A stretch of 47,024 nucleotides of DNA from Nanobdellota archaeon (GCA_043814765.1 JBDRJQ010000037.1:1-47024); one strand, 5' to 3'; numbered from the stretch's first letter, positions 1,659-39,902 are shown. The notes: a model not told the origin generated them from the sequence alone. Numbers and translations: made by a program.

Positions 1659-1857
1659 TGCGGGAGGCAGGATTCCCGTCACCCTTTGGGGTGCAGACCT
1701 TTTTTAAAGGGTTGCATTCGAACCTGCGAAAGCACTAAGCTACAGGATGTGTTATCACAGCCTTAAAGACTCAACACTTAAGACGAATGACCTTAAGTTT
1801 AGCATGATTTGACAATATCAAATCAACCTGCTCCTTTGGCCACTCGGAAACCCCCGC
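1659..1857 (-). tRNA. tRNA-Leu(UAA) with three introns: 30/31 (1799-1826), 37/38 (1749-1791), 59/60 (1673-1716)
   Basis: Removing the three segments gives an 84-nt class II cloverleaf: GCGGGGG/CTCCCGC-A, CAGGA-CTTAAGA-TCCTG, long variable arm, GCAGG-TTCGAAT-CCTGC. Each junction forms a BHB-like motif. Confidence 0.9.
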
Positions 1858-8699: not shown

Positions 8700-9362
8700 A
8701 TGAACTTTTACGATATGCATGTTTCTGCAGAAGATGTAAAGAAAACTATAGAAATTGCAGAAAAACTTGGTTGGAGTGGGCTTGTTTTTATTAGAAAATG
8801 GAATGGCGAAAAGAAACCCGCAAACTTTGCAAACGAGGCAAAAAAACTGGACTGTTCCATGGGATTAATTGTTGATGCGAAAAAAGCGAATGACATGCAG
8901 AAAACAGTGAAGTCGACAAGGAAGCAAACAGAGCTTATTATAGTCAAGGCAGGTGATCTGGAATTCAACAGGGTGGTTTTAGAAACTCCTGAAGTGGACA
9001 TATTATCAGGATTCAATATACAGCTAAATCATGTTATGTGCGAGCTCGCAAAGAAGAACAACGTGGCTATAGAGTTCAACTTCCACGACCTCATTTCAAG
9101 CTACAAGAATACCCGTGAGAAGATTTTCAACAACATGATAGAAAACGCGAAATTCATCCGCAAATACAAAACACCGTTTGTTATAACATCTGGAGCAATG
9201 GACCCATGGGATATGAGATCTCCGCAGGACCTTTTGTCCTTCGGCCGCCTTCTCGGCTTCCAGGACCCTCAAATAAAGAAAGCTATGTCTTCGTCAGTCC
9301 TCACAGAGAACCGCAAACGCCTCTCAGACAAATGGATTGCCCCTGGGGTAGAGCTAGAATAA
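8700..9362 (+). CDS. rnp3: RNase P protein Rpp30
   Basis: FYDMHV, KLGW, NRVVLE...VDIL, LAKKNNVAIEF, VITSGA...DMRSP. Confidence 0.92.
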   Translation: MNFYDMHVSAEDVKKTIEIAEKLGWSGLVFIRKWNGEKKPANFANEAKKLDCSMGLIVDAKKANDMQKTVKSTRKQTELIIVKAGDLEFNRVVLETPEVDILSGFNIQLNHVMCELAKKNNVAIEFNFHDLISSYKNTREKIFNNMIENAKFIRKYKTPFVITSGAMDPWDMRSPQDLLSFGRLLGFQDPQIKKAMSSSVLTENRKRLSDKWIAPGVELE

Positions 9363-10721
9363 AGTTTTTTGGGTTTGCTTCTTGTGAGCAATTTCTTCTA
9401 TTGATTCAGAAATAGCAGGTTCAACCAGTTTATGCTCTTCCTCAGTTTTGGATGCAAGTTTAGACGTAGTCTCTGTTTTGGATTGAACCCTTTTCAAAGG
9501 TTCATTTTCTAAAGGTTGATTAGGAGCTTCTTTAATTTTTGCAATAGGTTCCTCTTCCCTATGATTCTCTCTCAAAAAATCAACAACAGAATCTCCTTTA
9601 CCATTTTCCAGCATATCAAAGACATTTTCAAAGGTCTTCGGGTCAAGCTTGGCTGTTTCTAGGTTCTGCCTTAGAAGCTTCTTACCCAAATCCTCGGCAG
9701 ACAATTTCTGCTCTTCTATAGTTTTTGTCTGAAGCTCTTGTTTGTCTATGTCTTTTCTAAAAGAAACAAGAGCTATATCCTGATACTTGTTTTTCAATGA
9801 CATTGTATCAACATTTGACTTGCCTGTAATCTTTACTCGTATTGCAGGCTTCTTTTCATGATACTGTGAAGTTATCTCCTTTATCTTCTGATCAATCTGT
9901 TCATGTGTAGTGTTAGGCATATTTTCAAAATAAACCTTCCTCTGGTTGTTTATCTCAACGTATTGTATGCCACTTCTCATCTGCTTTGTGTCAAATACCC
10001 AAAAACCTCGAGGTTTAACTGATTCTTTGTTCAATTGAGTCTGAATCGTTGAGCCTGTTATTACTAAGGGTTTGCTGTCATATGATGATATTTCAGGGTT
10101 GTGTATATGCCCATTTATGTACAGATCAAATCCTCTGGGAAGCGTGTTTAATGGAACTAAATGAGGAGCGTATAAAAACCCTTCAAGTGACTGGTGCAGC
10201 ATAAAAATATTGAAGCAATCCTTTATTGGTTTAGGTCCCCATTCTTCCAGAGCTTTTTCAACATACTGATCAGGAACACCAGACAACCCCTGTATACAAA
10301 TCTTTTCATCGCCTTTCTTGAGTGTTACACCATTACTGTCTAAATGTATTAAGAAACCAGCCCTTTCCATAGCCTCTATAGGATTGACAAGGCCACGAGT
10401 TCTGCGTTCATGTGTTCCGTGTATGGCAATCACAGGTATCCCTTTGAATCTTTTATGTTCAACATTCTCTATTCCCTTACCAACACCTTCTATTATTTCA
10501 ACCTCGTTGTTAACAGTGAGAAGCTTTACAAACATATTCAGTGCACGCGAAAGCGTTTCCTGGGAAGGAACTTTCTTATCAAATATGTCTCCAGGAAGAA
10601 GTATTACGTCAGATTCTGTACTCCGCTCAAGTATTTCTTTAACCGCTTCAAATGAGTCATTTTCTCTTTCTGTGCCCTCACCAAAACCAAAATGCGTGTC
10701 AGAAATAATAGTGATTTTCAT
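9354..10721 (-). CDS. mre11: Mre11 DNA double-strand-break nuclease with a low-complexity C-terminal tail
   Basis: Phosphoesterase motifs SDTHFG, PGDIFD, HGTHE, HQ, GHIH. Confidence 0.9.
   Translation of the reverse strand: MKITIISDTHFGFGEGTERENDSFEAVKEILERSTESDVILLPGDIFDKKVPSQETLSRALNMFVKLLTVNNEVEIIEGVGKGIENVEHKRFKGIPVIAIHGTHERRTRGLVNPIEAMERAGFLIHLDSNGVTLKKGDEKICIQGLSGVPDQYVEKALEEWGPKPIKDCFNIFMLHQSLEGFLYAPHLVPLNTLPRGFDLYINGHIHNPEISSYDSKPLVITGSTIQTQLNKESVKPRGFWVFDTKQMRSGIQYVEINNQRKVYFENMPNTTHEQIDQKIKEITSQYHEKKPAIRVKITGKSNVDTMSLKNKYQDIALVSFRKDIDKQELQTKTIEEQKLSAEDLGKKLLRQNLETAKLDPKTFENVFDMLENGKGDSVVDFLRENHREEEPIAKIKEAPNQPLENEPLKRVQSKTETTSKLASKTEEEHKLVEPAISESIEEIAHKKQTQKTLF
9435..9530. repeat. 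Palindromic repeat element, copy 1 (in frame inside mre11)
   Basis: Ungapped manual alignment to 21724-21819 gives 80/96 identity. Confidence 0.85.
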
Positions 10722-10788
10722 AAACAATTCTTAATAGTAACTAATAAATTACTGAATGTATTTAAGCAGTAAAACATTAAACTAAACC

Positions 10789-11832
10789 ATGATGCAAGAA
10801 CTTTTTTCTCTAACAGCGCAGAAAATAGTAGACGACTACTTGCGAATTTTGCCAGAAGAAAGATTTTTTATCATAACCGATAGAAGAAGAGACTTTTCTT
10901 ATAAACTTTCCAAGGCTTGTTATGATTATGCTAGTAAAAAGAAAATTGAAACAAAGATAATTGTTCAGAAACGGACATCATACGGACCTGCAGATCAAAG
11001 TGTTGTGAGACTTTTTTCTGATCTCAAAAAGAATGACTGTCTTTTCATCTGTCTTGAAGACAAGCTTGGAAACTTCTATAACAAATTTAACAAAGGGTTC
11101 CGTAGCGTTATGCGCCAGCAGGGTGCAAGGTTCGCAACAATGACTGGTCTGCGCAGCCTTAACAACGAAGAGCGCTTACTGAAAGCTATAATTATAGGTT
11201 CTGAAGAAGTTAGAGAAAATGGAAAGAGACTGAAAGAACTGCTGGATAAAGCAAAAATAATTGAGCTTATTGGAAAATCAGGCACTAACATAAGGGCCAA
11301 TATAGAAAATCGCAATGCATGGTTTAATTCAGGCGAATTTTTCAAGTCAGGAACAGGCGGAAATCTGCCATCTGGCAACATAGACATTTTCCCTGTAGAA
11401 GGGAGTGTATCAGGAAAAATAGTTATAGATCACAGCGTAAAGATAGAGGCTGATACTGTTGTTTTAAAAAAACCAATAGAGTTTGAAATAGAAAACGGAG
11501 AGATAGTTCAGATACATGGTGAACAGTATATTGTTGAAAGAATCTACAACGACTTAAACAACTTCTCCTTCATTAACCAGCGTGCTGGCTTCGATCCACG
11601 CGGCATATTCAGAATAAGCGGTTTATCATTCGGATTATTACCATTACAGCCTATAGGTCTAAATCTTATGGATGAGCGTCTTTTGGGCCTTGCTGCAGTA
11701 TCCAATGGTAACAGCTGGGGCAAGGGCGGCAGAAACAAATGCCGCGGACACCGTGATCATTTATTCTGGATAGATCATATTTTGATAGATGGTGAGAAAT
11801 ACACAGTTAATCAGTTGGGGAAGTTAGATTAG
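10789..11832 (+). CDS. M29 (AmpT/aminopeptidase II)-like protein with degenerate metal ligands
   Basis: GTNI, GGNLPSG, PVEGSVSGKIVID, IENGEI, MDER, HRD. Confidence 0.75.
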   Translation: MMQELFSLTAQKIVDDYLRILPEERFFIITDRRRDFSYKLSKACYDYASKKKIETKIIVQKRTSYGPADQSVVRLFSDLKKNDCLFICLEDKLGNFYNKFNKGFRSVMRQQGARFATMTGLRSLNNEERLLKAIIIGSEEVRENGKRLKELLDKAKIIELIGKSGTNIRANIENRNAWFNSGEFFKSGTGGNLPSGNIDIFPVEGSVSGKIVIDHSVKIEADTVVLKKPIEFEIENGEIVQIHGEQYIVERIYNDLNNFSFINQRAGFDPRGIFRISGLSFGLLPLQPIGLNLMDERLLGLAAVSNGNSWGKGGRNKCRGHRDHLFWIDHILIDGEKYTVNQLGKLD

Positions 11833-12529
11833 ATGATTTTTCTACAAACTTTCTGAAAATTTTATTAAAGTTGTTATTACTTTCTATAAGATTTTCTGGA
11901 TGAAATTGTACACCAATAACGAATTTGTCTTTATGTTCTATGGATTCTATTATTCCATCTTTAGATCTGGAACTTACGATAAAATCATCCGGAACTTTTG
12001 ATAAGTGCTGTCTATGGAAACTATTTACATTCAATATATCATTTCCTAATGTTTCAAAAAACCTGCTGTTGCTTTCTATTTTTATCGAATGAAGCGTTTC
12101 GTTTTCTGGCTTTTTTTGATAATGATTTTCAGTACGCTCTATGTTGTCTATACTGCCTCCAAACACCTCGCCTATCATTTGATAGCCTCTGCAAATTCCC
12201 ATAATCGGTATGCTCAAACTGAAGGCATTTTCTATTAGCATTTTTTCAAAATCATAACGTTTTGGATTCTGTTCCCTTAATGAAGGAATTTTATCAACTT
12301 CACCCTGATTTACCTTCCTGTTAATTTCTCCGGCTCCGTCGCTTATTAGAAGGCCATTTATTTTTTCCAAAAGAATCTTTGTATTATTTTCATCTAGCAT
12401 GGGTAGCATTATTGGTATGGCTCCATTCTTTTCTAAAACTTCAGAAAAAATAGAATAAACCTTATAATAGTTTTCCTTGCTATCAAAATGGCAAGAGATT
12501 CCAATTACCGGTTTTTTAGATACAATCAT
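11807..12529 (-). CDS. Peptidase C26 / PuuD-like gamma-glutamyl hydrolase (class I glutamine amidotransferase fold)
   Basis: KPVIGIS, GICRGYQ (nucleophile Cys), VNSFHRQ, GVQFHPE. Confidence 0.9.
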   Translation of the reverse strand: MIVSKKPVIGISCHFDSKENYYKVYSIFSEVLEKNGAIPIMLPMLDENNTKILLEKINGLLISDGAGEINRKVNQGEVDKIPSLREQNPKRYDFEKMLIENAFSLSIPIMGICRGYQMIGEVFGGSIDNIERTENHYQKKPENETLHSIKIESNSRFFETLGNDILNVNSFHRQHLSKVPDDFIVSSRSKDGIIESIEHKDKFVIGVQFHPENLIESNNNFNKIFRKFVEKSSNLTSPTD

Positions 12530-13304
12530 AATCAAACTCTTCTTTTGTTAAGTATTCAGCAGGACCTGTCATCAAAATGTTTTTCCCATTCAAATCAAAA
12601 TGCAGGCTACCTCCTAGAGAGATTACTTCTATTGGAAATTTACAACTATTTACTCTGTTTACAACATAAGCTGTGGCTGTAGCTCCTGTGCCACAACATT
12701 CTGTAATCCTTTCTACACATGCCTCGTATGTTTTTATTTTAACTTTATGGGGGTTTAAAACTTCAATCATATTAACGTGCATATTATCAGGATATCCTAA
12801 ACGTTCACAAATAGGACGATTATATCTCAAAGCAACACATCTTTTATATGCGTTTATTTTTTCCAAGCTGTTTACAAATTCAACTAAATGAGGTATACCA
12901 GTGAAAACAAAATAAAGATTTTTATCAACGCGTTTAAAACTTCTTGATACACCCATGTTAACTTCAAATAAATTATCGCCTTTGAAAGTTATTTGTTTTA
13001 CCCCATCGAGGGTATTTATTTCAAATTTTTTACCAGTAACATAACCCCTTTTCATGCCATATAACGCAACGCATCTTATGCCATTGCCACACATCGTTTC
13101 TTCTGTACCGTCCCTATCAAATATCCTCATTTTCATTATACCGTTTAATTTTGAAACAAAAAGCACACTATCTGGGTCAAAATTATCTTTAGCTACAACC
13201 CTAACAAAATCACTTTTTGCGTTTTCTGGTATTACCAAACTTGCATATTCGTCTACTAAAATGAGCCTGTTTCCAAGTGCTTGCATTTTTGAAATTTCTA
13301 CCAT
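12516..13304 (-). CDS. DapF-like PLP-independent amino-acid epimerase/racemase
   Basis: KMQALGN, MCGNGIRC, PH, CCGTGA, GGSL, MTGPA. The DAP distal-site residues are substituted. Confidence 0.88.
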   Translation of the reverse strand: MVEISKMQALGNRLILVDEYASLVIPENAKSDFVRVVAKDNFDPDSVLFVSKLNGIMKMRIFDRDGTEETMCGNGIRCVALYGMKRGYVTGKKFEINTLDGVKQITFKGDNLFEVNMGVSRSFKRVDKNLYFVFTGIPHLVEFVNSLEKINAYKRCVALRYNRPICERLGYPDNMHVNMIEVLNPHKVKIKTYEACVERITECCGTGATATAYVVNRVNSCKFPIEVISLGGSLHFDLNGKNILMTGPAEYLTKEEFDYDCI

Positions 13305-13308
13305 ATTT

Positions 13309-14328
13309 TCACCCTTTTAGTCTAAATCTTGCAGAATATGCCATATCCGACATAGATGCAGGGATTTCTATGCCATATCTGATTGCTCCGCCATGAACCA
13401 TCATATTAACCACTTCATCAAAACCCACACCATAATTATTTGCTGCCCTTCTGAGATAGCTATCATCGCCTAGCCCAGGGAAGAGGTTTGTTTCAATGAC
13501 ATAGATTTCGCCGTTTCTCATTCTTGTATCAACCCTTATAATATCTTTATAGCCAACTGAGTCAGATGCTATATCCGCAATATCTTTTAGGGCACGCATA
13601 GTTTCAATGTCCAGGTCAGGTTTTTTTACCTTGTCTGTTAAAGGATCGTTTTTTATGGCATCTGTTAAAATTTTTCTTCGATCTCCCCCAGGAAAAAGTA
13701 TTTCCAAGGGAAACATTGTCTTTTCTGACCCATTATATAGCACACAAACTGTTATTTCTCTAATATCTTCACCGCCAACATATTCTTCTAAAATAAGATT
13801 TTCATACATTTTCCATAGTTCATTGACAGCTGAAGGTAGTATGCCTGGAGATTCTATAAAAGTTATGCCTGCACTGCATCCAGCATCGTTTGGTTTCAAT
13901 ATCAGTGGATAATTTAAATCTATTTCATTATAATCAAATTCTATATTTCCTTTCTTTAGAACGCGAAATCTTGGTGTTCTTATCCCCGCTTCTTCAAACT
14001 TAACTTTAGAAAGATTTTTATTAATGGATGTCCTGATTGCTTCGGAATCTGATGCAACATAAGAAGCATTAATGGAATCTAATATATCTGGTATCCAACA
14101 AACATTACCATCTTCATCATATATATATTCTACTAAGCTCAAAACAATATCAGGTCTTAATTCCTTCACAGCTATTTCTAGTTTATCTGGGTATCGAAAA
14201 ATACATCTTTTAGTCTCATTTCCTGTGCTTTCAAGAGAATCTTCTATTTCGTCCATTACCTCTTCTGTTCTCCAATCATGCCATCCTTCAGGCCGATCTA
14301 AAAGACCTTTGAACAACAACACCTTCAT
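13309..14328 (-). CDS. D-Ala-D-Ala-ligase-like ATP-grasp enzyme
   Basis: NKNLSK...GIRTP, YPLILKPNDAGCSAGI, EEYVGG, REITV, RVD, IETNLFPGL. Confidence 0.88.
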   Translation of the reverse strand: MKVLLFKGLLDRPEGWHDWRTEEVMDEIEDSLESTGNETKRCIFRYPDKLEIAVKELRPDIVLSLVEYIYDEDGNVCWIPDILDSINASYVASDSEAIRTSINKNLSKVKFEEAGIRTPRFRVLKKGNIEFDYNEIDLNYPLILKPNDAGCSAGITFIESPGILPSAVNELWKMYENLILEEYVGGEDIREITVCVLYNGSEKTMFPLEILFPGGDRRKILTDAIKNDPLTDKVKKPDLDIETMRALKDIADIASDSVGYKDIIRVDTRMRNGEIYVIETNLFPGLGDDSYLRRAANNYGVGFDEVVNMMVHGGAIRYGIEIPASMSDMAYSARFRLKG

Positions 14329-15944
14329 TTTATCACCAAACCATTCAATCTTTCTTTCTCAGTTATCATTTCATCATTATCATCCACTGGTACGCATGCA
14401 CCATTTACCATTCTCGTTCTGACAGTACCCATAGCATAATAATTTTTTAACAGTTGAGGCGTATCCATAATCCCGCTTTCTATCATCTTTGATAAAAATT
14501 CAGGGTTTGATAAATCATCATAACTTGAGCCAAAAGTTTCTATAGAATGGTCTATGATGTATCTAACATCATTTTTTAAAGAGTCCTTTCTTTGTAAAAT
14601 TTCTGGGTCGCTGGAAATATCGGGTAATGAATCAAGTGATTGTGAAATTACGAATCTTGCCATTTTACAACTGTCTACTATATCTTTGCTTGTTGATGCA
14701 TGATGAGCTTCGGAATAGCTTACTACATGAACTATGTCAGGATTTAGATACATCTGCAAACCAACAGAATGAGCTAGGTGTGCTTTGGCTTCAGACATAT
14801 CTGCAGGATAACTCAACAGGCCTGTTCTAGTCTGGACAAGAAGACTTATGTCTGGTATTTCCTCTATAAGCTCTTTTTTTGCAAGCATTTTTGCCAGATC
14901 CATCTTTGTGCTTGTACCTACTGGAGTATGCATCATGCATTGCAAAATTATGTCGTCAACTCCTTGTTTGGCTGCATTTAAAGCACCTAAATAAGCACCC
15001 AAGACACTTATTGTATCATGAGCATCTCTCAGGCTCCAATGATGGGCCTCCAAAGGCTCTACAAACAAATCACGATCACCATACCATTTCATGAGTTCTT
15101 GATGCTCCTTTATAGAATCTTCAACTGACAGCGGACCCCTTCCATCCATATGGTTAAACCAGAATAATGGAATTGCAGCCCAGGCATTGTTTATTGTCCT
15201 GTCATAAAGCTCTGCAAGCTTTATGAAGTCATTGGTTCCTGCGTAAATTCTAAGAAGAGGGTAATTGCCTGTTCTTGAGGCTTCATAAATAGCCATCAAA
15301 TCATTTTCTGATCTTATTGGCACTCCGCCGGCGCCTGCTGTTTTTGGATCGTGTCTTTCTGGATGAAAAAAACTTTCTTGTGCTGTTTGGTCAGGCGCAA
15401 TTGATACGACATCAACGGTTTCAGACTCTGCTATTTCTCTGACAGCGTCCAATGTTTGTTCCATTGTAGGCAAACCTAGATGATGTCTTATTATAGGAAA
15501 TGGATAATTGGCTTCAATTCTTTCTCTCAATGTGTTTCCGAAAACTACTTCTTCTGGTTCCCCCAAATCACCTTTTAGGTATCTCAGCACCTTTCCACTA
15601 TCACCACTTGCGAAATATTCGTCAAAAAACCCGAATTCCCTAACAGCATCTAATACAGGCTCTGTTCCTGCTAAAACATATTGTTTATTATATAGACCTT
15701 TTATTTTAACAGCTTCAATAAAATCACGCACTTCACTTATTGCTGTTTCAGGCGTGAGCCTATAGCTTACGCCTACAATATCAGGATTATAATTTATTAT
15801 TGCATTTACAATGCCGTCTGTTCCGATGCCTGGACCTAAAAAAATGACTTCATAATCCAGCTTTTCAGCTATCTTTGAAAATTTATTTATTCCTGCAACA
15901 TGTACATCTTGCCCCAACGGAGCCACTAATATTTTTCCTTTCAT
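14325..15944 (-). CDS. Cobalamin-dependent enzyme: B12-binding domain fused to a glutamate-mutase-E-like barrel
   Basis: N-terminal base-off motif GQDVHVAG, FLG and IVGVS. The C-terminal region resembles GlmE (PLLRIYAGTND..LAE, GLLSYPADMSEA, SYSEAHHAST). Confidence 0.8.
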   Translation of the reverse strand: MKGKILVAPLGQDVHVAGINKFSKIAEKLDYEVIFLGPGIGTDGIVNAIINYNPDIVGVSYRLTPETAISEVRDFIEAVKIKGLYNKQYVLAGTEPVLDAVREFGFFDEYFASGDSGKVLRYLKGDLGEPEEVVFGNTLRERIEANYPFPIIRHHLGLPTMEQTLDAVREIAESETVDVVSIAPDQTAQESFFHPERHDPKTAGAGGVPIRSENDLMAIYEASRTGNYPLLRIYAGTNDFIKLAELYDRTINNAWAAIPLFWFNHMDGRGPLSVEDSIKEHQELMKWYGDRDLFVEPLEAHHWSLRDAHDTISVLGAYLGALNAAKQGVDDIILQCMMHTPVGTSTKMDLAKMLAKKELIEEIPDISLLVQTRTGLLSYPADMSEAKAHLAHSVGLQMYLNPDIVHVVSYSEAHHASTSKDIVDSCKMARFVISQSLDSLPDISSDPEILQRKDSLKNDVRYIIDHSIETFGSSYDDLSNPEFLSKMIESGIMDTPQLLKNYYAMGTVRTRMVNGACVPVDDNDEMITEKERLNGLVIK

Positions 15945-16023
15945 ATGCTTCCTCAATTATTGTTAGTTTTATGATACCACTATAAGATAGTTACATATAT
16001 AGTTTTTAAACTTTTTAGCAAAA

Positions 16024-17091
16024 TTAAGCCACTAATGGGATATCTTCTGATAACATGTATTCAAGCCCATTATTGTTAAAACCCATTTTTTCCAATGTTC
16101 TTCCAGTTTTCCTGAAATCGATTTTCATTACTTCAGAAGCTTCAGCTATCAAAACATCTATTGTCGGTGTCTTCACATCAAGAAGTTTGCCAAATTCTGA
16201 TATCGGAACCAATCCAGTTGGCACGTCTTCTGTTATATATCTAACATTAAGCGTTCTTGGTGCAGGAAGATTTTTGTATGCAGGATTCCTGTCTATCATA
16301 ATCCTCAAAGGTACGCCATTTCGAATGCCGTATGAAAAGGTTAACCAATCCTTTATTGGTAAGACATCCACGCCTAATGCCTTGGCAACATCCACCCTTT
16401 CTCTGTCAACAGCTTCTATTCTCATCTCAACATCCCTTGTTACACCTTCTCTATAAAAGTCAAAACCTTCCTCAAGCCTATCCCGATTGCTTAAAAGCAC
16501 TGTTGGGTGGAAAACTGCGCCTATATTGCTGAAACTACATTCAAAAATACCACCCACTTTTATTTGCGGATATACATCGCTTAATGCGTCAGACACAATG
16601 TAGCTGTCCTCTCTTCTCCTTGAAGCCAAGATTATATTATTTTTCACTTTACTTATTCTAACATTACCTGGTTCATGGCTTCTGCAAACATAAATTAAAC
16701 TCGATGTTTCAGCAATAATTGGTTTTGTTTTACCTAGGGCTTTCTCGAACTCGAAAACACCGCCTGTCCTACCGGGATTCAACACAACAATTTGGTCATC
16801 CCTTAAATAAGGAGACATTTTCTTTGCCATATCATAATGAGCATCTGCTGTAGTGACAACCATTATAATATCTGCATCAGATATGGTTTCATCCAAATCA
16901 CAGCTAAGTCTTTCTATTGGAGCAAAACCTTCTATTTCACCTTCTACGTATATTCCTCCAAGTTCTCTGACAGCTGCTATTTTTTCAGGATTTCTATCGT
17001 AGACACTAACATTTTTGCCTGCTAATGTAAGATGTGATGCAAAAGCATGTCCACCATTACCTAAACCCAGTATTGCGTATCTTTCAGTCAT
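16024..17091 (-). CDS. NAD(P)-dependent opine (octopine/nopaline) dehydrogenase family protein
   Basis: Rossmann GLGNGG, LNPGRTGG, AETSSLIY, NIGAVFHP, FYREG, VDRER, RYITEDVPTGL. Confidence 0.93.
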   Translation of the reverse strand: MTERYAILGLGNGGHAFASHLTLAGKNVSVYDRNPEKIAAVRELGGIYVEGEIEGFAPIERLSCDLDETISDADIIMVVTTADAHYDMAKKMSPYLRDDQIVVLNPGRTGGVFEFEKALGKTKPIIAETSSLIYVCRSHEPGNVRISKVKNNIILASRRREDSYIVSDALSDVYPQIKVGGIFECSFSNIGAVFHPTVLLSNRDRLEEGFDFYREGVTRDVEMRIEAVDRERVDVAKALGVDVLPIKDWLTFSYGIRNGVPLRIMIDRNPAYKNLPAPRTLNVRYITEDVPTGLVPISEFGKLLDVKTPTIDVLIAEASEVMKIDFRKTGRTLEKMGFNNNGLEYMLSEDIPLVA

Positions 17092-17130
17092 CAAACTAAC
17101 AAAAAAAACTAGGAACTAAAACCTGAACTA

Positions 17131-17160
17131 ATTATATATATATTAGCTATATAAATATTT
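17131..17160. promoter_or_regulatory. AT-rich divergent promoter region with TATA-like boxes between the opine operon and the EamA gene
   Basis: ATTATATATATATTAGCTATATAAAT in a ~120-bp divergent intergenic gap. Confidence 0.4.
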
Positions 17161-17210
17161 AAGATTTTTAAGACTTTTGTTTATTTCTGTAAATTCCCTA
17201 AGTAAATAGT

Positions 17211-18083
17211 ATGGAATGGATAATTTTTGCTTTGGTGGCAGCTTTTCTTTTTGGGTTTCAAACCATTCTTAAGAAGAAAGTTTTAAAGAAACAGGATACA
17301 TTCGAGTTTCTAACACTATTATATTTAATAAATTTCTTGATATTATTGCCATTCATCTTTAGCGTCAATTTGTTTCTGTCTTCATACTCACTTTTTTTAA
17401 TTTTTGTCAGATCAGTCCTGATGCTCGTGGCTATAGTTTCATTCACCGAAGCACTTAAGCATCTGCCAATATCTACTGTTACGCCGTTATCAAACTTAAA
17501 ACCGTTATTTACCCTAGTATTAGGTTTTATAATCCTCAGTGAAACAATAGGACCATTCCAGATAGTTGGTGTGATTGTAATCATAATGGGTTCTTATCTT
17601 CTGGATTCAGAAGGCAATCTAAAAGATTATAAAAAACCACTAAAGACGTTAATTGAGTCTAGGCAGATTCATTACATTTTAATATTTGCTGTATTTTATT
17701 CATTAGGTGCCATATTATCAAAAACAATATTAAAAACAATCGGGCCTCTGGATTTGCTTTTTTATCATTCCCTTTTCAGCGTTTTTCTCTACTTTGCAAT
17801 AATTTTCATTTTTTATAGTGGAGTAAAAGATTTGAAAAATAGTTGGAACATGGCTGGTTTTTGGATAATATTAATAGCAATATTGGGTGTTCTAGCAAGT
17901 TATACAAGTTTTTTGTCTTTTGCTTCAATTGATTCTAAAGTTATTTTGATTGTTCCAATACTACAGGTATCTAACTTGATAAGCGTTGTGCTTGGCGGAA
18001 AAATATTCAAGGAAAAACACATAGGAATTAAAATAATAGCATCGATTTTGATGATAACAGGAGTTGTTTTAATTCTCATTTAG
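17211..18083 (+). CDS. EamA/DMT family transporter
   Basis: About 10 TM helices in two repeats; ALKHLPIS...LGFIILSE and LGGKIFKE motifs. Confidence 0.9.
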   Translation: MEWIIFALVAAFLFGFQTILKKKVLKKQDTFEFLTLLYLINFLILLPFIFSVNLFLSSYSLFLIFVRSVLMLVAIVSFTEALKHLPISTVTPLSNLKPLFTLVLGFIILSETIGPFQIVGVIVIIMGSYLLDSEGNLKDYKKPLKTLIESRQIHYILIFAVFYSLGAILSKTILKTIGPLDLLFYHSLFSVFLYFAIIFIFYSGVKDLKNSWNMAGFWIILIAILGVLASYTSFLSFASIDSKVILIVPILQVSNLISVVLGGKIFKEKHIGIKIIASILMITGVVLILI

Positions 18084-18088
18084 TTTTC

Positions 18089-19225
18089 TCAAACAACCAA
18101 AAGTGCCAGTGCCATTATTCCAGCAAAAGCGAACGCAAAGGTGAATATGTTAGTTGTCAAAAACAAAGCAATTAACAACAAAATAAACAGCAATGTAAGT
18201 CTTCCTGTTTGAAGTCTAACTTCCCTTGAAACTACCATTGAAAGCGGATTGCGTTTTGAGAGCTTGGAAAACATTGCGAATATAGGCACGTCTATTAGAG
18301 CCAATGAAAGCCCTCCCAACAGTGATAATAGGAATATTTCCATCGGTGACGATGCGAATATTCTAGTAAACCACACAACTGCGAATATTACGCTGCCAAT
18401 TTTTATTATATTATTCTTGTCAACTTTATCACTCATCCTTCCAATAAAAACAGTGAAGATGGCAATGCCAAGAACATTCAAAGTTCCTGCTATGCCAACA
18501 GATACCAAATCTCCTAATACCATGAATATGTATATGGGCCAGACAACACCTTCTACTATCCAGAAAACACCCTGTATAAAAAATCTGTTTGAGAATTCTT
18601 TGGCTCTTTTCAGAGGCTTTTCTTTTCTTATGTTATAATTAAAGTTTATGAGGCACTCTCCTGTAAAGGACAAAGGAATAACAGATATGGCTGTCAATAA
18701 CATAACCAGTATCAGAACAGAGTGAAATCCAAAATATTCTAGCATTATACCTCCTAGAATAGGAGCAAATATGACAAAGATATTTGGTATAGCAGATAAA
18801 TAGCTTGACTGTGATCCAACCTTTTTGCTATCTGCATTTTTACAGAATTCTGAATTTAGTGGAGTCCAATAAAAAGCTGTTGATGTTCCTGCTAATATGG
18901 CTGCTGCATAAAGAAAGGCTGGATGCAAAAACTCTAAGTTAGTTAGCAAGAACAGAAAAGAGATTAATATAGGAACTCTCAATACTATTGTTCTTTTGAT
19001 GCCTATTTTAGATGATATATGAGCAGCAAAAAATATCATTATCCAAGCTGTTCCCCATAAAAAAATCAGGTAAACAAAAACTTCTGGTAAAGTAAAACTC
19101 ATCTTCAAAAGATATATCGGAATGAATATACCAATTAACGAAATAGCAAAAAGATCTATTATTCTGTTGATATAAAGTTCCTTTAATTCTACATTGCCTT
19201 TGAATATTTTGCTGAAATCGTACAT
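18089..19225 (-). CDS. MFS transporter
   Basis: About 12 TM helices; motif A-like ISSKIGIKR and GRMSDKVDK; APILGG. Confidence 0.85.
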   Translation of the reverse strand: MYDFSKIFKGNVELKELYINRIIDLFAISLIGIFIPIYLLKMSFTLPEVFVYLIFLWGTAWIMIFFAAHISSKIGIKRTIVLRVPILISFLFLLTNLEFLHPAFLYAAAILAGTSTAFYWTPLNSEFCKNADSKKVGSQSSYLSAIPNIFVIFAPILGGIMLEYFGFHSVLILVMLLTAISVIPLSFTGECLINFNYNIRKEKPLKRAKEFSNRFFIQGVFWIVEGVVWPIYIFMVLGDLVSVGIAGTLNVLGIAIFTVFIGRMSDKVDKNNIIKIGSVIFAVVWFTRIFASSPMEIFLLSLLGGLSLALIDVPIFAMFSKLSKRNPLSMVVSREVRLQTGRLTLLFILLLIALFLTTNIFTFAFAFAGIMALALLVV

Positions 19226-19256
19226 GTACTATTGTTAGTTTAACCAGAATAAAATA

Positions 19257-19568
19257 CTACTTCTTTTTCGTTTTAGCCGGAGCTTTTTCTAAAGGCTTTT
19301 TAGCTTCTTTTTCGAGAATTTCTATATTTTTGCTTAGTACAGTTCCAGGCAATCCTTTACTGAATCTTGCTCTTAATACACCACTGTTGCCATGTGTTTG
19401 GGTTATCTTTCCGTAAATTTTCTTACCAGCTGTACTTTGCCATAAAACACGTCTTCCTATAAACTGTGAAGCCATTGCACGTGTATCAACTCCAGGTAAT
19501 TCTAGCAAAAACTGGTTGGTCGTCTGTGTGTGTCTTCCTCTCCTGAAACTCAACACTATAGCTCGCAT
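19257..19568 (-). CDS. rpl35ae: 50S ribosomal protein L35Ae (eL33) with a basic C-terminal extension
   Basis: SFRRGRHTQ, IGRRVLW, GKITQTHGNSGVLRARFSKGLPG. Confidence 0.93.
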   Translation of the reverse strand: MRAIVLSFRRGRHTQTTNQFLLELPGVDTRAMASQFIGRRVLWQSTAGKKIYGKITQTHGNSGVLRARFSKGLPGTVLSKNIEILEKEAKKPLEKAPAKTKKK

Positions 19569-19604
19569 AAACACTATTTATCTTCTATATATTAATAAAT
19601 ACAT

Positions 19605-19892
19605 ATGGAAGTTGATGCAGTCTTCAAAGTAAAAGTGAAACCAAATGCAAAGGAATTCAGAATAAGAGTAAAAGAACTCACACTGTTTGTAGATGTTGTT
19701 TCTGCAGCTCAAGAAGGGGGTGCGAACAGAGAATTACTCAAAGAGCTTAAGAAAATCTTTAAGAGAGAAGTTTTTTTAGTAAGAGGTCATAAGAGTAAGG
19801 AAAAGGTTATTCTAGTTAAAAATTTGATGCCAGAAGACGCTGAAGCAATTCTAAATAGTTGCGAACGACTCAAGGAACCATCCACCGAATAA
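19605..19892 (+). CDS. DUF167 (YggU-like) protein
   Basis: VKVKPNAK, EGGANREL, GHKSKEK. Confidence 0.85.
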   Translation: MEVDAVFKVKVKPNAKEFRIRVKELTLFVDVVSAAQEGGANRELLKELKKIFKREVFLVRGHKSKEKVILVKNLMPEDAEAILNSCERLKEPSTE

Positions 19893-20342
19893 ACTTCCTA
19901 CATAAGCTGCTATTGCAAACTGTATAAACCTGCCTATTATGCAAACAACAAGGAATTTCTTAAAATTAAGCTTGAAAATACCTGCTGCCCAGGCAAACAC
20001 TTTGAATGGTATTGGTGTGAATGCAGCTATAAGAACTGCCCATGCACCATATTTATCAAACCACTTCTCTACACCACCCATATGTTTCTTGAAAAGTCTG
20101 TCAGCACCTTTACGGCCAAGTAAATGCCCTAAACCATAACCTATCACAGCGCCTATAACAGAGGCTATTGTGGCAATAATTGTTATTAGTAATGGATTAA
20201 CGCCAAGTGCTGCTGCTGGTGCAATAAAAACAGCAGTTGGTACTGGAAATATGAACGATTCGAGAAGAGATACTATAAATGTACCGGTCAAACCATATTG
20301 TGCAACAAATGCCTGTGACCACAAAACAAGTTCTGCAAACAT
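19851..20342 (-). CDS. DedA/VTT (YqaA-like) membrane protein
   Basis: ESFIFPVP, GAVIGYGLG, FDKYG, FTPIPFKVFAWAAG, GRFIQF. Confidence 0.9.
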   Translation of the reverse strand: MFAELVLWSQAFVAQYGLTGTFIVSLLESFIFPVPTAVFIAPAAALGVNPLLITIIATIASVIGAVIGYGLGHLLGRKGADRLFKKHMGGVEKWFDKYGAWAVLIAAFTPIPFKVFAWAAGIFKLNFKKFLVVCIIGRFIQFAIAAYVGSLFGGWFLESFATI

Positions 20343-20395
20343 ATACAACTATTTGTTTCCGGAAGACTTAAATCTCTTATTTTCAAAGATTTAAA

Positions 20396-20851
20396 ATGAA
20401 GGCTTTAAGCTCTGCGAAATTTTTGAAGAAAGAATCAGTAACGCTCACTCTTAAAAAAACATACGAAAATAAATTTGCTCATTTTTCTGATTCTAAGGGA
20501 AGCGGAGCAACAAGTGATTATGAACGCGGAAGCGTTTCTTATAAACTTGATTGGAACGTTTTTGAATCAAACAAAGCCCCTAAAGAAATGAGCATGAATT
20601 ACATTTTATCAGACAAACAACAATGCATCAAAGAATATGATGAATTTGAACTTCGGTTTGCATGGATATCAGGTAAAACAGTCGGATATTCAGATAAGAG
20701 CATTGTAAAAGGCGAGAATTGGACAGTTATCTGTAGAATCAGTACAGATGAATTCACACGATTAGAAGGAAGGTCTATAGAAGAAATAATTGAAGAGCAA
20801 CTATCACGGGATTATAAACCGCTCTGGTTTTATTGTAAAAACTCTTTTTAA
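20396..20851 (+). CDS. Hypothetical protein
   Basis: 151-aa ORF filling the gap with normal composition; no motif recognised. Confidence 0.55.
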   Translation: MKALSSAKFLKKESVTLTLKKTYENKFAHFSDSKGSGATSDYERGSVSYKLDWNVFESNKAPKEMSMNYILSDKQQCIKEYDEFELRFAWISGKTVGYSDKSIVKGENWTVICRISTDEFTRLEGRSIEEIIEEQLSRDYKPLWFYCKNSF

Positions 20852-22092
20852 TCTCCGGCTAAAAGTTCTTCTGCGAACTTATCGGGTTTGAATATCTCAA
20901 TATCCTGATATTCTTGTCCTGTTCCCAAAAATAATATTGGTTTCTTGATTGCCTGGCAAACCGATAGTATGGACCCACCCTTACTGTTTACATCAGTTTT
21001 AGTTAACACAACAGCATCTACACCAACTGCTTCGTTAAACGCTTTTGCCTGCTCAACAGAATCATTTCCTGTTAACGAATCTACAACCAAAACTTTCATC
21101 TGAGGGTTGTTGACTCTAACAACCTTTTTTATTTCATCCATAAGGTTCTTGTCTGCATGGGATCTTCCTGCTGTATCTGCGAGAACAACATCATAGCCAT
21201 TTTTTGAACCATGTTTTATTGCATCGAAAACCACTGCTGCTGCGTCAGCTCCATATTGGTGTTTTATTACTTTAATTTTTAGTTTGTCCGCATGGTGCTC
21301 AAGCTGTTCTATGGAGGCTGCTCTAAAAGTGTCTGCAGCCGCAAGAAGAACGCGGTATCCTTTTTTTGTCAGGAACTGTGCAAACTTTGCAATGCTTGTT
21401 GTTTTACCAGAACCATTAAATCCTAAGAAAATAAAACACGCAGATGTGTTTTGTTTTTTAGCATCTTTTATTAATTTATCAACATCAATCTTGCCTTGAT
21501 CAAGAATGCTTGTTATGCTCTGCTCAAAAGCATTCTTTATTTCTTTACTAGATCCAATACGTTTTGACGCCTTGTTGACAAGACTTTCTTTTAAGTTTTT
21601 TTTCATCTCATCAATAACTTCAAGTGCTATATTTGATTCTAAAAGATCCATCTCAACATCTTTAAAAAAATCATCAATGTCCTTTTCCTTCAATGTTTTC
21701 TGAAACAGTCCTTTTTCCTTGGTCTTTTCTTCAGTTTTGGGTGCAGCCTGAGACGTAGTCTCTTTTTTGGGTTGAACCTTTTCTAAAGGTTCATTTTCTA
21801 AATGTTGCTTTGGAACTTCCCTTTTGGATTCCTTTCTCTTGAATACCCTTTCAAAAAACTTTCCCTTTTTAGGCTCTTCTTCTTTGAATTCCTCTATAAT
21901 CCTTTCCTTTTCTTGAACTTCTTCCTTATACTTTATTTCAGCTTTATGTTTCTCTGGTTTTTTTAGTTCCTTCTTTAGCTTTACATCTGCTTTTTTCCCT
22001 TTGGCTAAAATCTTTTCCAAAGGTTTCTCTTCCACTTTTTTTGTTAAAGCTTTCACAGATTCAGAAAGCCTTTTCTTCAATCCACCGAACAT
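20848..22092 (-). CDS. ftsY: SRP receptor FtsY
   Basis: GFNGSGKTT, AADTFRAA, DTAGR, TKTD...KGG, GTGQ; charged N-terminal region. Confidence 0.96.
   Translation of the reverse strand: MFGGLKKRLSESVKALTKKVEEKPLEKILAKGKKADVKLKKELKKPEKHKAEIKYKEEVQEKERIIEEFKEEEPKKGKFFERVFKRKESKREVPKQHLENEPLEKVQPKKETTSQAAPKTEEKTKEKGLFQKTLKEKDIDDFFKDVEMDLLESNIALEVIDEMKKNLKESLVNKASKRIGSSKEIKNAFEQSITSILDQGKIDVDKLIKDAKKQNTSACFIFLGFNGSGKTTSIAKFAQFLTKKGYRVLLAAADTFRAASIEQLEHHADKLKIKVIKHQYGADAAAVVFDAIKHGSKNGYDVVLADTAGRSHADKNLMDEIKKVVRVNNPQMKVLVVDSLTGNDSVEQAKAFNEAVGVDAVVLTKTDVNSKGGSILSVCQAIKKPILFLGTGQEYQDIEIFKPDKFAEELLAGD
21724..21819. repeat. Palindromic repeat element, copy 2 (in frame inside ftsY)
   Basis: 80/96 identical to 9435-9530. 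Contains the hairpins TGAACCTTT-N3-AAAGGTTCA and GAGAC-N3-GTCTC. Confidence 0.85.
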
Positions 22093-38711: not shown

Positions 38712-39902
38712 ATGATCGAACTAAAATGGGACCCAAAAAAAGGAATATGGTCTGAAGAAGTGACTAGTGCTGAAAAACTAACAAGAAACTTCTATGGTAC
38801 TCGTAAGAAGAATGTTGTCTGGCTTCGTCCTGAAGAAGCGCTTTACATAATGAATTTTCAGAACGGTGCTTGCGAAGACAAAAATGGTAGTGTTACGTTC
38901 AATGATATGGCTTCCTTTTATTCTCAAAAAGAACCAAGGTTCTTCATCAAATATAATGCTTACAGAGACTGGCGTGACAGGGGTTTGATATCAAAAAGAA
39001 TAAAGGATGTTGAAAGCGCAGAAGGTAAAAAGGAAAAGATAAAGAAATACCCTTCCAATGATTTTGTTAAAAAGAAAATCAAAGTAACTGCTTATTGGTA
39101 TTCTGAATCATTGTACTCTGTTATAGAAGATTCAATTGTAGGACACATGCTCTTTAATGATCATTGGTTTGGCCAACTAGGCGTTTACAAACAGGAGCGT
39201 GGAGAGCTTCTGAAATTGGATTTTATGGAAACAATTTTCTTGGGAAAATACTTAAACATAAATATAATTAACGCAACCACAGGAAAACCAATAACTCCTG
39301 AAGTAATTCTTAATAGTGTAAAGAAAAAGATGGAATACGCAAAACAACTATACGAAGTTTACGAGGACTGGCGCCTGCGTAGCTATGTAGTAAAAACAGG
39401 CTTCAAGTTCGGAACGCATTTCAGGATATACTTTCCAGGCGCCAAACCTGGAAGAAGTGATGATAAATGGATACACTCCAAACATGTGATTCACATATTT
39501 CCTAAAACACAAAAAATGCTAGTATCAGAGTGGTCTCGTGCAGTGCGTGTAGCTCACGGAGTTAAGAAGACTTTCATTCTTTCCATTCCAGAGATGAAGA
39601 AAAATGATTACGTAGATTATCCAGCAGACTTCTTAGCGTATCGCAGAAAGAAAGATAAAGATTCCTGGATTAGAGAAACACCCAAGGATAGTCCCAGATA
39701 TTTGATCGTTCCAATGGCCGAGGATGAGTGCATAGGCGGCGTGGAGTTAGCATCGTTGCTCAAAAAAGCCAGCAACATGGGCCTAGAATTGCTCCTATCC
39801 ATTACTGACAGGGAAACTGCTATTACATACTACCTTTTGAAGCAAATAATCCTGCCAGGATCAAAATACGAGTACTATGAGATAGAGTGGATGAAACCAT
39901 GA
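38712..39902 (+). CDS. endA: tRNA-splicing endonuclease, three-unit epsilon2 (ARMAN-like) architecture
   Basis: 396 aa with duplicated L..EEALY/Y..YRDWR units; catalytic unit KTGFKFGTHFRIY...HS...VAHGVKK; C-terminal YYEIEWMKP. Confidence 0.93.
   Translation: MIELKWDPKKGIWSEEVTSAEKLTRNFYGTRKKNVVWLRPEEALYIMNFQNGACEDKNGSVTFNDMASFYSQKEPRFFIKYNAYRDWRDRGLISKRIKDVESAEGKKEKIKKYPSNDFVKKKIKVTAYWYSESLYSVIEDSIVGHMLFNDHWFGQLGVYKQERGELLKLDFMETIFLGKYLNINIINATTGKPITPEVILNSVKKKMEYAKQLYEVYEDWRLRSYVVKTGFKFGTHFRIYFPGAKPGRSDDKWIHSKHVIHIFPKTQKMLVSEWSRAVRVAHGVKKTFILSIPEMKKNDYVDYPADFLAYRRKKDKDSWIRETPKDSPRYLIVPMAEDECIGGVELASLLKKASNMGLELLLSITDRETAITYYLLKQIILPGSKYEYYEIEWMKP

Follow-up and report, generated by a model that had tools for sequence, protein, structure and literature searches.

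The window considered here, a 47,024-nt stretch of DNA from a Nanobdellota archaeon (GCA_043814765.1 JBDRJQ010000037.1:1-47024), carries on its minus strand two related 96-nt segments that lie in frame within unrelated housekeeping genes, one encoding an Mre11-like phosphoesterase and the other FtsY. The 96-mer does not constitute a separate family; rather, its core belongs to a repeat family with ∼40 loci in the genome, a short hairpin module that is found also in tRNA introns, at stop codons and in spacers between genes. Our preferred interpretation, to which we assign a probability of roughly 0.7, is that a selfish hairpin module was recently inserted or copied into these genes and is read through in disordered regions of essential proteins. 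A sequence-only reading of the same DNA had described a self-standing 96-bp palindromic element, and this description has to be replaced by that of a coding-compatible offshoot of a family of 30-50-nt hairpin modules. It had also proposed a selfish in-frame repeat in disordered protein regions of a DPANN-type archaeon; here the dispersed hairpin repeat, its in-frame position and its placement in disordered parts of unrelated housekeeping proteins all stand, while mobility, translation and selfishness are properties that the module would have under our interpretation.

The two segments, at positions 9435-9530 (copy A) and 21724-21819 (copy B), both on the minus strand, align without gaps with 80 of 96 nt identical and form the longest direct repeat of the window (family D1); copy B is recovered by BLAST with copy A at E=1.6e-23 in the 859-kb, 39-contig assembly. 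Our recount gave 16 differences, as the earlier count had it, and also reproduced the equal orientation and frame relative to the host genes, both copies lying inside long open reading frames (ORFs) that are kept open. The translations given previously are reproduced as well. Copy A reads EAPNQPLENEPLKRVQSKTETTSKLASKTEEE, residues 400-431 of the 457-residue Mre11-like protein, in its C-terminal tail, and copy B reads EVPKQHLENEPLEKVQPKKETTSQAAPKTEEK, residues 92-123 of the 414-residue FtsY, in the linker that joins the N-terminal helix to the NG domain. Each copy folds in RNAfold into a 9-bp stem, UGAACCUUU...AAAGGUUCA, together with a small second hairpin, (G)AGAC-UAC-GUCU(C), and the 96-nt unit contains in addition the partial tandem TTTAGAAAA(T/G)G, so that the main hairpin, the partial repeat of it and the small hairpin that had been noticed by eye are all seen in both copies. 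The second hairpin occupies positions 9462-9472 (minus strand) in copy A, AGAC-UAC-GUCU, where it is present in both the minimum-energy and centroid structures from RNAfold, and positions 21750-21762 (minus strand) in copy B, GAGAC-UAC-GUCUC. Its position in copy A is that of the GGAGC-loop-GCUUCC hairpin of the intron copies described below.

Evidence that the core of the 96-mer derives from a larger family comes from several searches. With the 96-mer as query, only the central ∼30 nt were matched in 47 genomes of the same taxonomic family, many of the matches lying outside ORFs and one inside a tRNA-Ser intron. An nhmmer profile made from 24 non-coding seeds that were collected after a pattern scan of the genome, the coding copies being left out, identifies 39 distinct loci in the genome at E<0.05. 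Three elements make up the module: an A/U-rich stem-loop of 9-10 bp (consensus TAAACCTTTT-loop-AAAAGGTTTA), a single-stranded AATCCAAAA that hardly varies and, in many copies, a small second hairpin containing G/C. The linker of the core has the consensus AAYCCAAAA; for the family as a whole nhmmer gives (A)TAAACCTTTT-loop-AAAAGGTTTAATCCAAAA, after which a GGAGC-loop-GCTTCC hairpin frequently comes. A covariance model (R1, 10 bp plus linker) was built from seven non-coding copies of equal length (alignment A4), leaving out the MAFFT alignments A2 and A3 in which gaps were placed 5' rather than in the loop. In the genome of the window (G000 in what follows) R1 produces 74 matches at E<=1, both strands counted.

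Both models recover the coding copies at full length and on the sense strand. The part of copy A that is common to the family, hairpin H1 plus the linker AAUCCAAAA (9476-9504, minus strand), scores 29.8 bits with R1 (genome-wide E=2.8e-3) and E=2e-4 with nhmmer, and the corresponding part of copy B, H1 plus AACCCAAAA (21765-21793, minus strand), scores 31.3 bits (E=1.3e-3) and E=6.6e-4, the hairpin being predicted by RNAfold in each case. That there might be only these two copies is no longer tenable. A word-7 BLAST search of the whole genome finds a third in the C-terminal tail of ribosomal protein S24e (C28:35395-35448), with 52 of 54 nt identical to the FtsY copy, 25.2 bits with R1 and E=2e-3 with nhmmer, and the hairpin core has ∼40 relatives in the genome. 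Further, an exact 28-mer from the Mre11-like copy is found in tandem hairpin arrays between genes in named Ca. Aenigmatarchaeota metagenome-assembled genomes (MAGs) and in a genome of the same taxonomic family, G040. Because models built without the coding copies recover them, and because the 28-mer is intergenic in other genomes, the non-coding repeat is the source and the coding sequence the derivative.

The arrays themselves, at loci L010 and L014 of G040 and at L177 of a named Ca. Aenigmatarchaeota MAG, are arranged head to tail, with 2-3 modules of differing stem variants in short intergenic spacers; at L177 three modules stand in a row between two genes (bases 575-660). At gathering thresholds Rfam reports only tRNA and RT-16 RNA in 13 loci from relatives and nothing over the module. 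The RT-16 RNA match (RF03019, 60.9 bits, over the gathering score) lies at L012:10-222 in genome G004, ∼1.3 kb from a module in an apparent tRNA-Leu D-loop intron.

Amino-acid-level conservation and a lack of stem covariation had been named beforehand as the marks of a shared protein motif or a one-off gene conversion, and the data give the reverse on both counts. To evaluate covariation, 61 matches from G000 and relatives, comprising 49 distinct rows, were aligned to the model; the alignment is thus fitted to R1, and it also contains hits to the palindrome in antisense. The closing pair is UA in 27 rows, GC in 13, CG in 6 and AU in 2, the second pair is AU in 34, GC in 12 and CG in 1, and 98.9% of the cells are paired. 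The covariation score of 0.236 compares with 0.082 for shuffles, none of 500 of which reaches 0.236, and with values <=0.049 for slid structures; an independent count on 36 unique rows of full length agrees with this. In the peptides, on the other hand, synonymous and nonsynonymous differences per site between the Mre11-like and FtsY segments are pS=0.198 and pN=0.158, a ratio of 0.80, with differences distributed 6/5/5 over the codon positions and 11 of 32 residues changed. The ratio for FtsY versus S24e is 0.31, a value based on just 6 differences. From these comparisons it is the hairpin that appears to be under selection and not the peptide, the divergence of which looks nearly neutral.

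A fourth coding case is provided by a canonical module (R1 53.8 bits), including the second hairpin, that forms the last 22 codons of a primase-like ORF of 451 residues (C27:20040-21392, minus strand; Pfam DNA_primase_lrg, a weak match at E=1.6e-4), which ends ...NPINHAF-KSLKPFLKKVSSKRSSRFQRKG; the S24e protein ends ...VAPKQHLENEPLEKVQPKEEKPAEIPKEEGG. All coding copies use one strand of the module and one reading frame, giving (K/E)-P-(L/F)-x-K-V. Read in this frame, the commonest module variant of the same length would give GTT TAA, as it does for example after the P1 stop in a congener of the host, G028. The coding copies read GTT CAA or GTT TCA, and the partner base in the opposite arm is altered too, such that the stem is kept. 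Those in the Mre11-like, FtsY and S24e genes carry the stem variant TGAACC...GGTTCA, which in this frame gives GTT CAA, and have in common ∼26 nt on the 5' side that are missing from other members of the family, while the 3' extent varies, producing units of 96, 96 and ∼58 nt. The modules at C8:18359, C20:30770 and C27:42458 are likewise covered by ORFs, of 258, 105 and 138 residues; these resemble spurious frames, antisense or of low complexity, and are not counted as coding. PLEK(A/V) stretches are seen in two more tails, one L31e-like (C33:16977-17002, 25 nt at 92% identity to the module) and the other in L35Ae (window 19271-19312, with weak DNA similarity to the module); each may be a decayed copy or a chance likeness within a K/E-rich tail.

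Both host genes in the window have orthologues in other family genomes. The gene for the Mre11-like phosphoesterase (9354-10727, minus strand, 457 residues) matches Pfam Metallophos at E=1.4e-11 and NCBIfam Mre11 models at E=7e-27; it is called Mre11-like because the NCBIfam scores fall below the equivalog cut-offs. An orthologue is present in 39 of 46 other family genomes, with tails that are hypervariable beyond approximately residue 388. The FtsY gene (20848-22092, minus strand, 414 residues) scores 301 bits with TIGR00064, exceeding the cut-off of 260.7, contains SRP54 and SRP54_N domains, and has orthologues in all 46 other family genomes. An AlphaFold2 model of FtsY, computed with 25 orthologues, gives confident predictions for the N-terminal helix and, from residue 131 onward, for the NG domain, and has predicted local distance difference test (pLDDT) values <50 at residues 24-56, 58-85 and 88-128. 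The insert thus falls, according to the model, in the predicted-disordered residues 88-128, where the fold would be undisturbed. Structure prediction covered FtsY; the tails that hold the Mre11-like and S24e inserts differ widely in both length and sequence from one orthologue to another.

The distribution of the module among relatives is uneven, with R1 matches in 26 of 47 family genomes and numbers (both strands counted) that range from 43 in G000, 21 in G028, 19 in G008 and 17 in G019 to 0 in many. A total of 98 orthologue loci was searched with R1, including 11 of the 29 primase loci, and no module is found inside an orthologous gene of the family genomes (0/29 for FtsY, 0/29 for Mre11, 0/29 for S24e and 0/11 for primase); three R1 matches at E<=1 occur in two of the loci, none of them within the gene. 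G028, which belongs to the same genus as G000 with protein identities of 68-72%, is without the coding segments. Between two conserved motifs of FtsY it has 14 residues vs 39 in G000, its Mre11 tail is shorter than in G000, and its S24e ends six residues past ...EKRT. Primase-like orthologues all have short basic tails of other sequence and the end in G028 differs as well, being shorter and of partly similar sequence, either a decayed module or chance. Where the region of C28:35361 in G000 is compared with L092 of G028, homology ends in the S24e tail a few codons ahead of the module and the downstream genes differ, so that a rearrangement breakpoint lies beside this module copy. G028 carries modules in ORF frames of its own, for example in the 5' part of an aIF2-gamma-like frame, where the module would be translated judging from the only in-frame start candidate; no aIF2-gamma orthologue was found in the G000 assembly, the best tblastn match having 25% identity. 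A search of metagenome contigs for FtsY returned four loci, the best at 48% identity, none near enough for a presence/absence comparison.

Most copies of the module lie outside protein-coding sequence. By inspection ∼15 are in tRNA genes, where the module begins 1 nt past the 5' splice site and makes up the 5' portion of many introns; it is shared by introns in the T loop and the anticodon loop of Leu, Ser, Pro, Val, Cys, Asn and Arg tRNAs. In the T-loop introns exon UUCG pairs with CGAG or CGGA near the 3' end of the intron, with bulges AA|A and AA|U and the T stem as outer helix, a bulge-helix-bulge (BHB) arrangement. A strict hBHBh' scan (h, h' >=2) missed true T-loop introns too, and a relaxed scan with controls was used instead, which has the expected intron among its candidates for 6 of 7 tRNA controls. 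Anchored BHB candidates are present at 20 of 41 loci and, once these are removed in silico, ARAGORN recognizes 9 of the 20 as tRNAs (Leu, Ser, two Pro, Val, one doubtful Phe, Cys, Asn and Arg). Intron-aware runs and in-silico splicing are necessary for such detection, since ARAGORN at default settings reports no tRNA at the module loci save L011 and none in the window. At C35:29052-29582 (L124) three modules are found within 330 nt, two as introns of one tRNA-Ser(CGA) and one in a 107-nt T-loop intron of a neighboring tRNA-Val(GAC). The window itself includes, at 1659-1745 (minus strand), an apparent 3' part of a tRNA with a ∼44-nt T-loop intron and another hairpin variant, GCAACCC...GGTCTGC followed by ACCCCAAAGGG; the flanking exon is nearly equal to that at C29:68263.

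The module is not confined to tRNA genes, with 22 loci in spacers or at gene ends and 4 in ORFs. Nine of the 22 start within -2 to +3 nt of the stop codon of the upstream ORF on the same strand (C29:87551, C29:49730, C32:33728, C8:15789, C35:39143, C9:3962, C36:4151, C39:14282 and C27:42458). Random intergenic sites fall as near to a stop in 282 of 17573 cases (1.6%), corresponding to a binomial P of ∼3e-11 with a crude ORF caller and a list of 22 loci that was hand-picked from R1 matches, one of which was later found to be in a tRNA-Cys gene and from which one eligible locus had been omitted. The stop codon is often the module's own TAA, or TA plus the module's first G. Nearly all copies run in the same sense as the local transcript, and several of those adjoining stops occupy 10-40-nt spacers ahead of ribosomal-protein genes.

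Our interpretation of these observations is as follows. The module would land at many kinds of site through copying at the level of DNA and would survive only where it is tolerated. In tRNA genes the BHB would let the splicing endonuclease remove it; elsewhere it would rest on or directly past stop codons in short spacers; and occasionally it would persist inside an ORF, provided that the host frame runs through it without a stop and that its site is a tail or linker that is hypervariable, disordered and rich in K, E and P. Because the stem variant and the ∼26-nt 5' flank are common to three copies, a single TGAACC insertion was most likely re-copied between genes, either by transposition of the extended unit or by ectopic conversion, and the FtsY-S24e transfer, with 2 differences in 54 nt, would be the most recent. 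The ribosome would read through the copies, adding ∼19-32 residues of the type (E/K)PLEKVQ(P/S)K that drift almost neutrally and would be without function.

A number of points weigh against this interpretation. No clean empty site could be aligned between G000 and G028 at S24e, primase, FtsY or Mre11, because the host regions are of low complexity and diverged between the two; exact breakpoints are therefore lacking and the term insertion rests on absence of the module. The orthologue comparison that had been proposed as a check finds the module in no FtsY or Mre11 orthologue gene searched and yields no clean empty site. Neither a target-site duplication nor a terminal repeat was identified, with no consistent duplication at the junctions inspected, and the sole inverted repeat of the module is its central hairpin. 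A search for a parent element, limited to Y1 transposases (PF01797, E<=0.01, with matches in 6 of 14 control genomes) and reverse transcriptases (PF00078), found neither in G000, an assembly that is 88% complete, and therefore no candidate mobilizing enzyme. With R1 the coding copies reach only modest E-values (1e-3 to 3e-2), and the calibration of the model is rough. Since flanks beyond the module are in common, the three TGAACC copies are copies of one another, and independent coding events in G000 number only about two. Translation of the coding copies is something that we infer. Finally, strong conservation of the single-stranded linker, together with the bias for the sense strand, could reflect a host function rather than selfishness. 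For the strand bias and the position at stop codons, selection acting on RNA is the other possible source.

The broader form of our interpretation is more tentative, and we regard it as possible at best. It holds that the tRNA introns of this lineage are but one outcome for a generic hairpin that propagates itself and inserts at any place in transcribed DNA, in sense orientation, with local tolerance deciding whether it becomes a spliceable intron wherever a BHB can form, a hairpin at a stop codon or 3' end in spacers, or new protein sequence in disordered tails. A bolder version has the module spread as RNA, through endonuclease/ligase-mediated reverse splicing of the excised circular intron into tRNAs and mRNAs, and were this true some mRNA copies would still be partly spliced.

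A function for the host is the next alternative to consider. The module might be a useful RNA or DNA signal, for example a protein site on the hairpin plus AAUCCAAAA, acting at stop codons and 3' ends, in leaders and in pre-tRNAs, with the coding copies placing this signal in three or four mRNAs. A nearly invariant linker and a stem that covaries across genera are both what such a signal would show, as is a placement at stop codons that is far from random (9/22 vs 1.6%) and an orientation almost always sense to the local transcript. It is more difficult to reconcile with copy numbers between 0 and 43 across 47 related genomes that are alike in size, with orthologous genes that lack the module, with the occurrence of tandem and nested arrays, and with peptide drift and a variable copy extent (96, 96 and ∼58 nt) that resemble decay; nor does the Rfam search of the relatives' loci return any match over the module. 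We consider a host signal unlikely as the explanation of the coding copies, noting that it can co-exist with the selfish insertion that we favor.

The window encodes a tRNA splicing endonuclease that lies outside of the repeat (38712-39902, plus strand, 396 residues), of the three-unit type, with Pfam tRNA_int_endo twice in one frame and two catalytic-type domains. Its best match among solved structures is 4fz2_A (395 residues, E=2.5e-94), which we take to be the ARMAN-2 epsilon2 enzyme of the three-unit, broad-specificity type. A three-unit endonuclease class of the ARMAN-2 epsilon2 kind is described in the literature (PMC3488258, PMC12397907). The 396-residue enzyme is expected to remove the copies of the module in tRNA introns, and its type fits the many non-canonical tRNA introns of the genome. 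With such an enzyme at hand, the coding copies could conceivably be BHB introns of mRNAs that are spliced out, the open frame serving only to make unspliced transcripts harmless. Genuine BHB tRNA introns of this genome do carry the same module as their 5' portion, the segment is divisible by three in length, and there are archaeal protein genes with BHB introns (PMC2738675). Against this, the relaxed BHB scan finds nothing that preserves the frame around the coding copies: S24e has 0 candidates, primase has one with a length that is 1 modulo 3, and those in the Mre11-like and FtsY genes are pairings of U runs with A runs that either have lengths not divisible by three or entail loss of conserved residues. 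One such FtsY candidate, 131 nt with an 8-bp outer helix, was rejected, its length being no multiple of 3 and its removal deleting the conserved DIDDFF region. In addition, the 3' end of the tRNA introns complements the exon and no such complement is present in the coding copies, and the stem variant that removes the stop in all of the coding copies is predicted by translation and not by splicing. Spliced mRNA introns are, in our view, very improbable.

We judge it to be equally doubtful that there is no mobile element at all, with ectopic recombination or conversion between K/E/P-rich coding tails accounting for the shared segment and the likeness to the hairpin family due to chance in AT-rich, K/E-rich sequence. 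The ∼26-nt 5' flank common to three copies and their differing 3' extents are indeed reminiscent of conversion tracts, and weak PLEK-type similarity is present in the L31e and L35Ae tails. Chance likeness does not account for models made without the coding copies finding all three at full length on the sense strand, for the 28-mer that is identical to intergenic repeats of other genomes, for a canonical, high-scoring module that ends the primase-like ORF in the same frame, or for the other modules of G028 in other ORF frames such as the aIF2-gamma-like one. Conversion may nevertheless have been the route by which the extended unit moved between the three genes. A selected short linear motif in the three proteins, such as a docking site, is scarcely credible: PKQHLENEPLEKVQPK is identical in FtsY and S24e and their pN/pS is low (0.31, from 6 differences), but that identity extends to the DNA (52/54 nt), as recent copying predicts, the Mre11-like and FtsY peptides differ at 11 of 32 residues with pN/pS of 0.80, the segment is missing from every orthologue gene examined, and its DNA belongs to a non-coding repeat family.

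What gives recent insertion of a hairpin module its wider significance is that one module is found in tRNA introns, on stop codons and in frame in essential genes, and is missing at orthologous sites, so that arrival, which would be independent of context, can be separated from survival, which would require either a spliceable insert or an open frame within a disordered region. A single element would in this manner tie together intron gain, stop-codon hairpins and new protein sequence, which is for us its main interest, and it would offer very small genomes a route to new tail sequence in conserved proteins. In the open-access text that was searched we found no published case of archaeal repeats of the tRNA-intron type inside ORFs, nor a counterpart of the Rickettsia palindromic elements (RPEs) discussed below.

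Transposed tRNA introns have been described in Thermoproteales (Fujishima et al. 2010, as summarized in PMC4090602), with BHB motifs at the junctions and copying that is presumed to be at the DNA level; in that 2014 review the mechanism of archaeal tRNA-intron transposition is called unknown. Copying, mobile elements and reverse transcription have also been tested for Asgard archaea in a 2026 preprint, which leaves the arrival route open (10.64898/2026.10.13.758758). The present module resembles the Thermoproteales introns in that a near-identical intron is found in different tRNA genes and positions with BHBs at its junctions, and differs from them in being found also in spacers, on stop codons and inside ORFs. 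Because it occurs outside of tRNA genes, its arrival cannot depend on a BHB target.

Repetitive extragenic palindromic (REP) sequences near stop codons affect translation. Bacterial REPs and bacterial interspersed mosaic elements (BIMEs) are imperfect palindromes of 20-40 nt for which size and role have been summarized (PMC3733652). Like the module they are short multi-copy palindromes just past genes and between co-oriented genes; unlike them the module has no GTAG/CGTC head, an A/U-rich rather than G/C-rich stem, no match to a Y1/RAYT transposase in G000, and copies in tRNA genes and ORFs as well. The BHB intron of the cbf5 pre-mRNA of Crenarchaeota (PMC2738675) is comparable to the coding copies in that sequence of the tRNA-intron type is present in a protein gene of an archaeon with a broad-specificity endonuclease. 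There the reading frame is interrupted and a BHB is formed at the ends, whereas here the frame is continuous and no usable BHB is found.

The closest parallel to the coding copies is with the RPEs, bacterial elements of ∼150 bp (about 100-150) that are mostly intragenic and in frame in housekeeping genes (PMC10969869). A likeness to them had been pointed out from the sequence alone, and it holds insofar as in-frame copies are present in unrelated genes, with only 4, perhaps 5, of ∼40 loci being coding. Both are dispersed, hairpin-forming and non-autonomous, both lie in frame in unrelated housekeeping genes, and both add peptide without destroying the protein. No relationship in sequence between the two is to be expected. 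The module is distinguished by a core of about 30-50 nt, by its archaeal host, by the small coding fraction and by its additional presence in tRNA introns and on stop codons, and its coding copies would be an archaeal counterpart of the RPE phenomenon.

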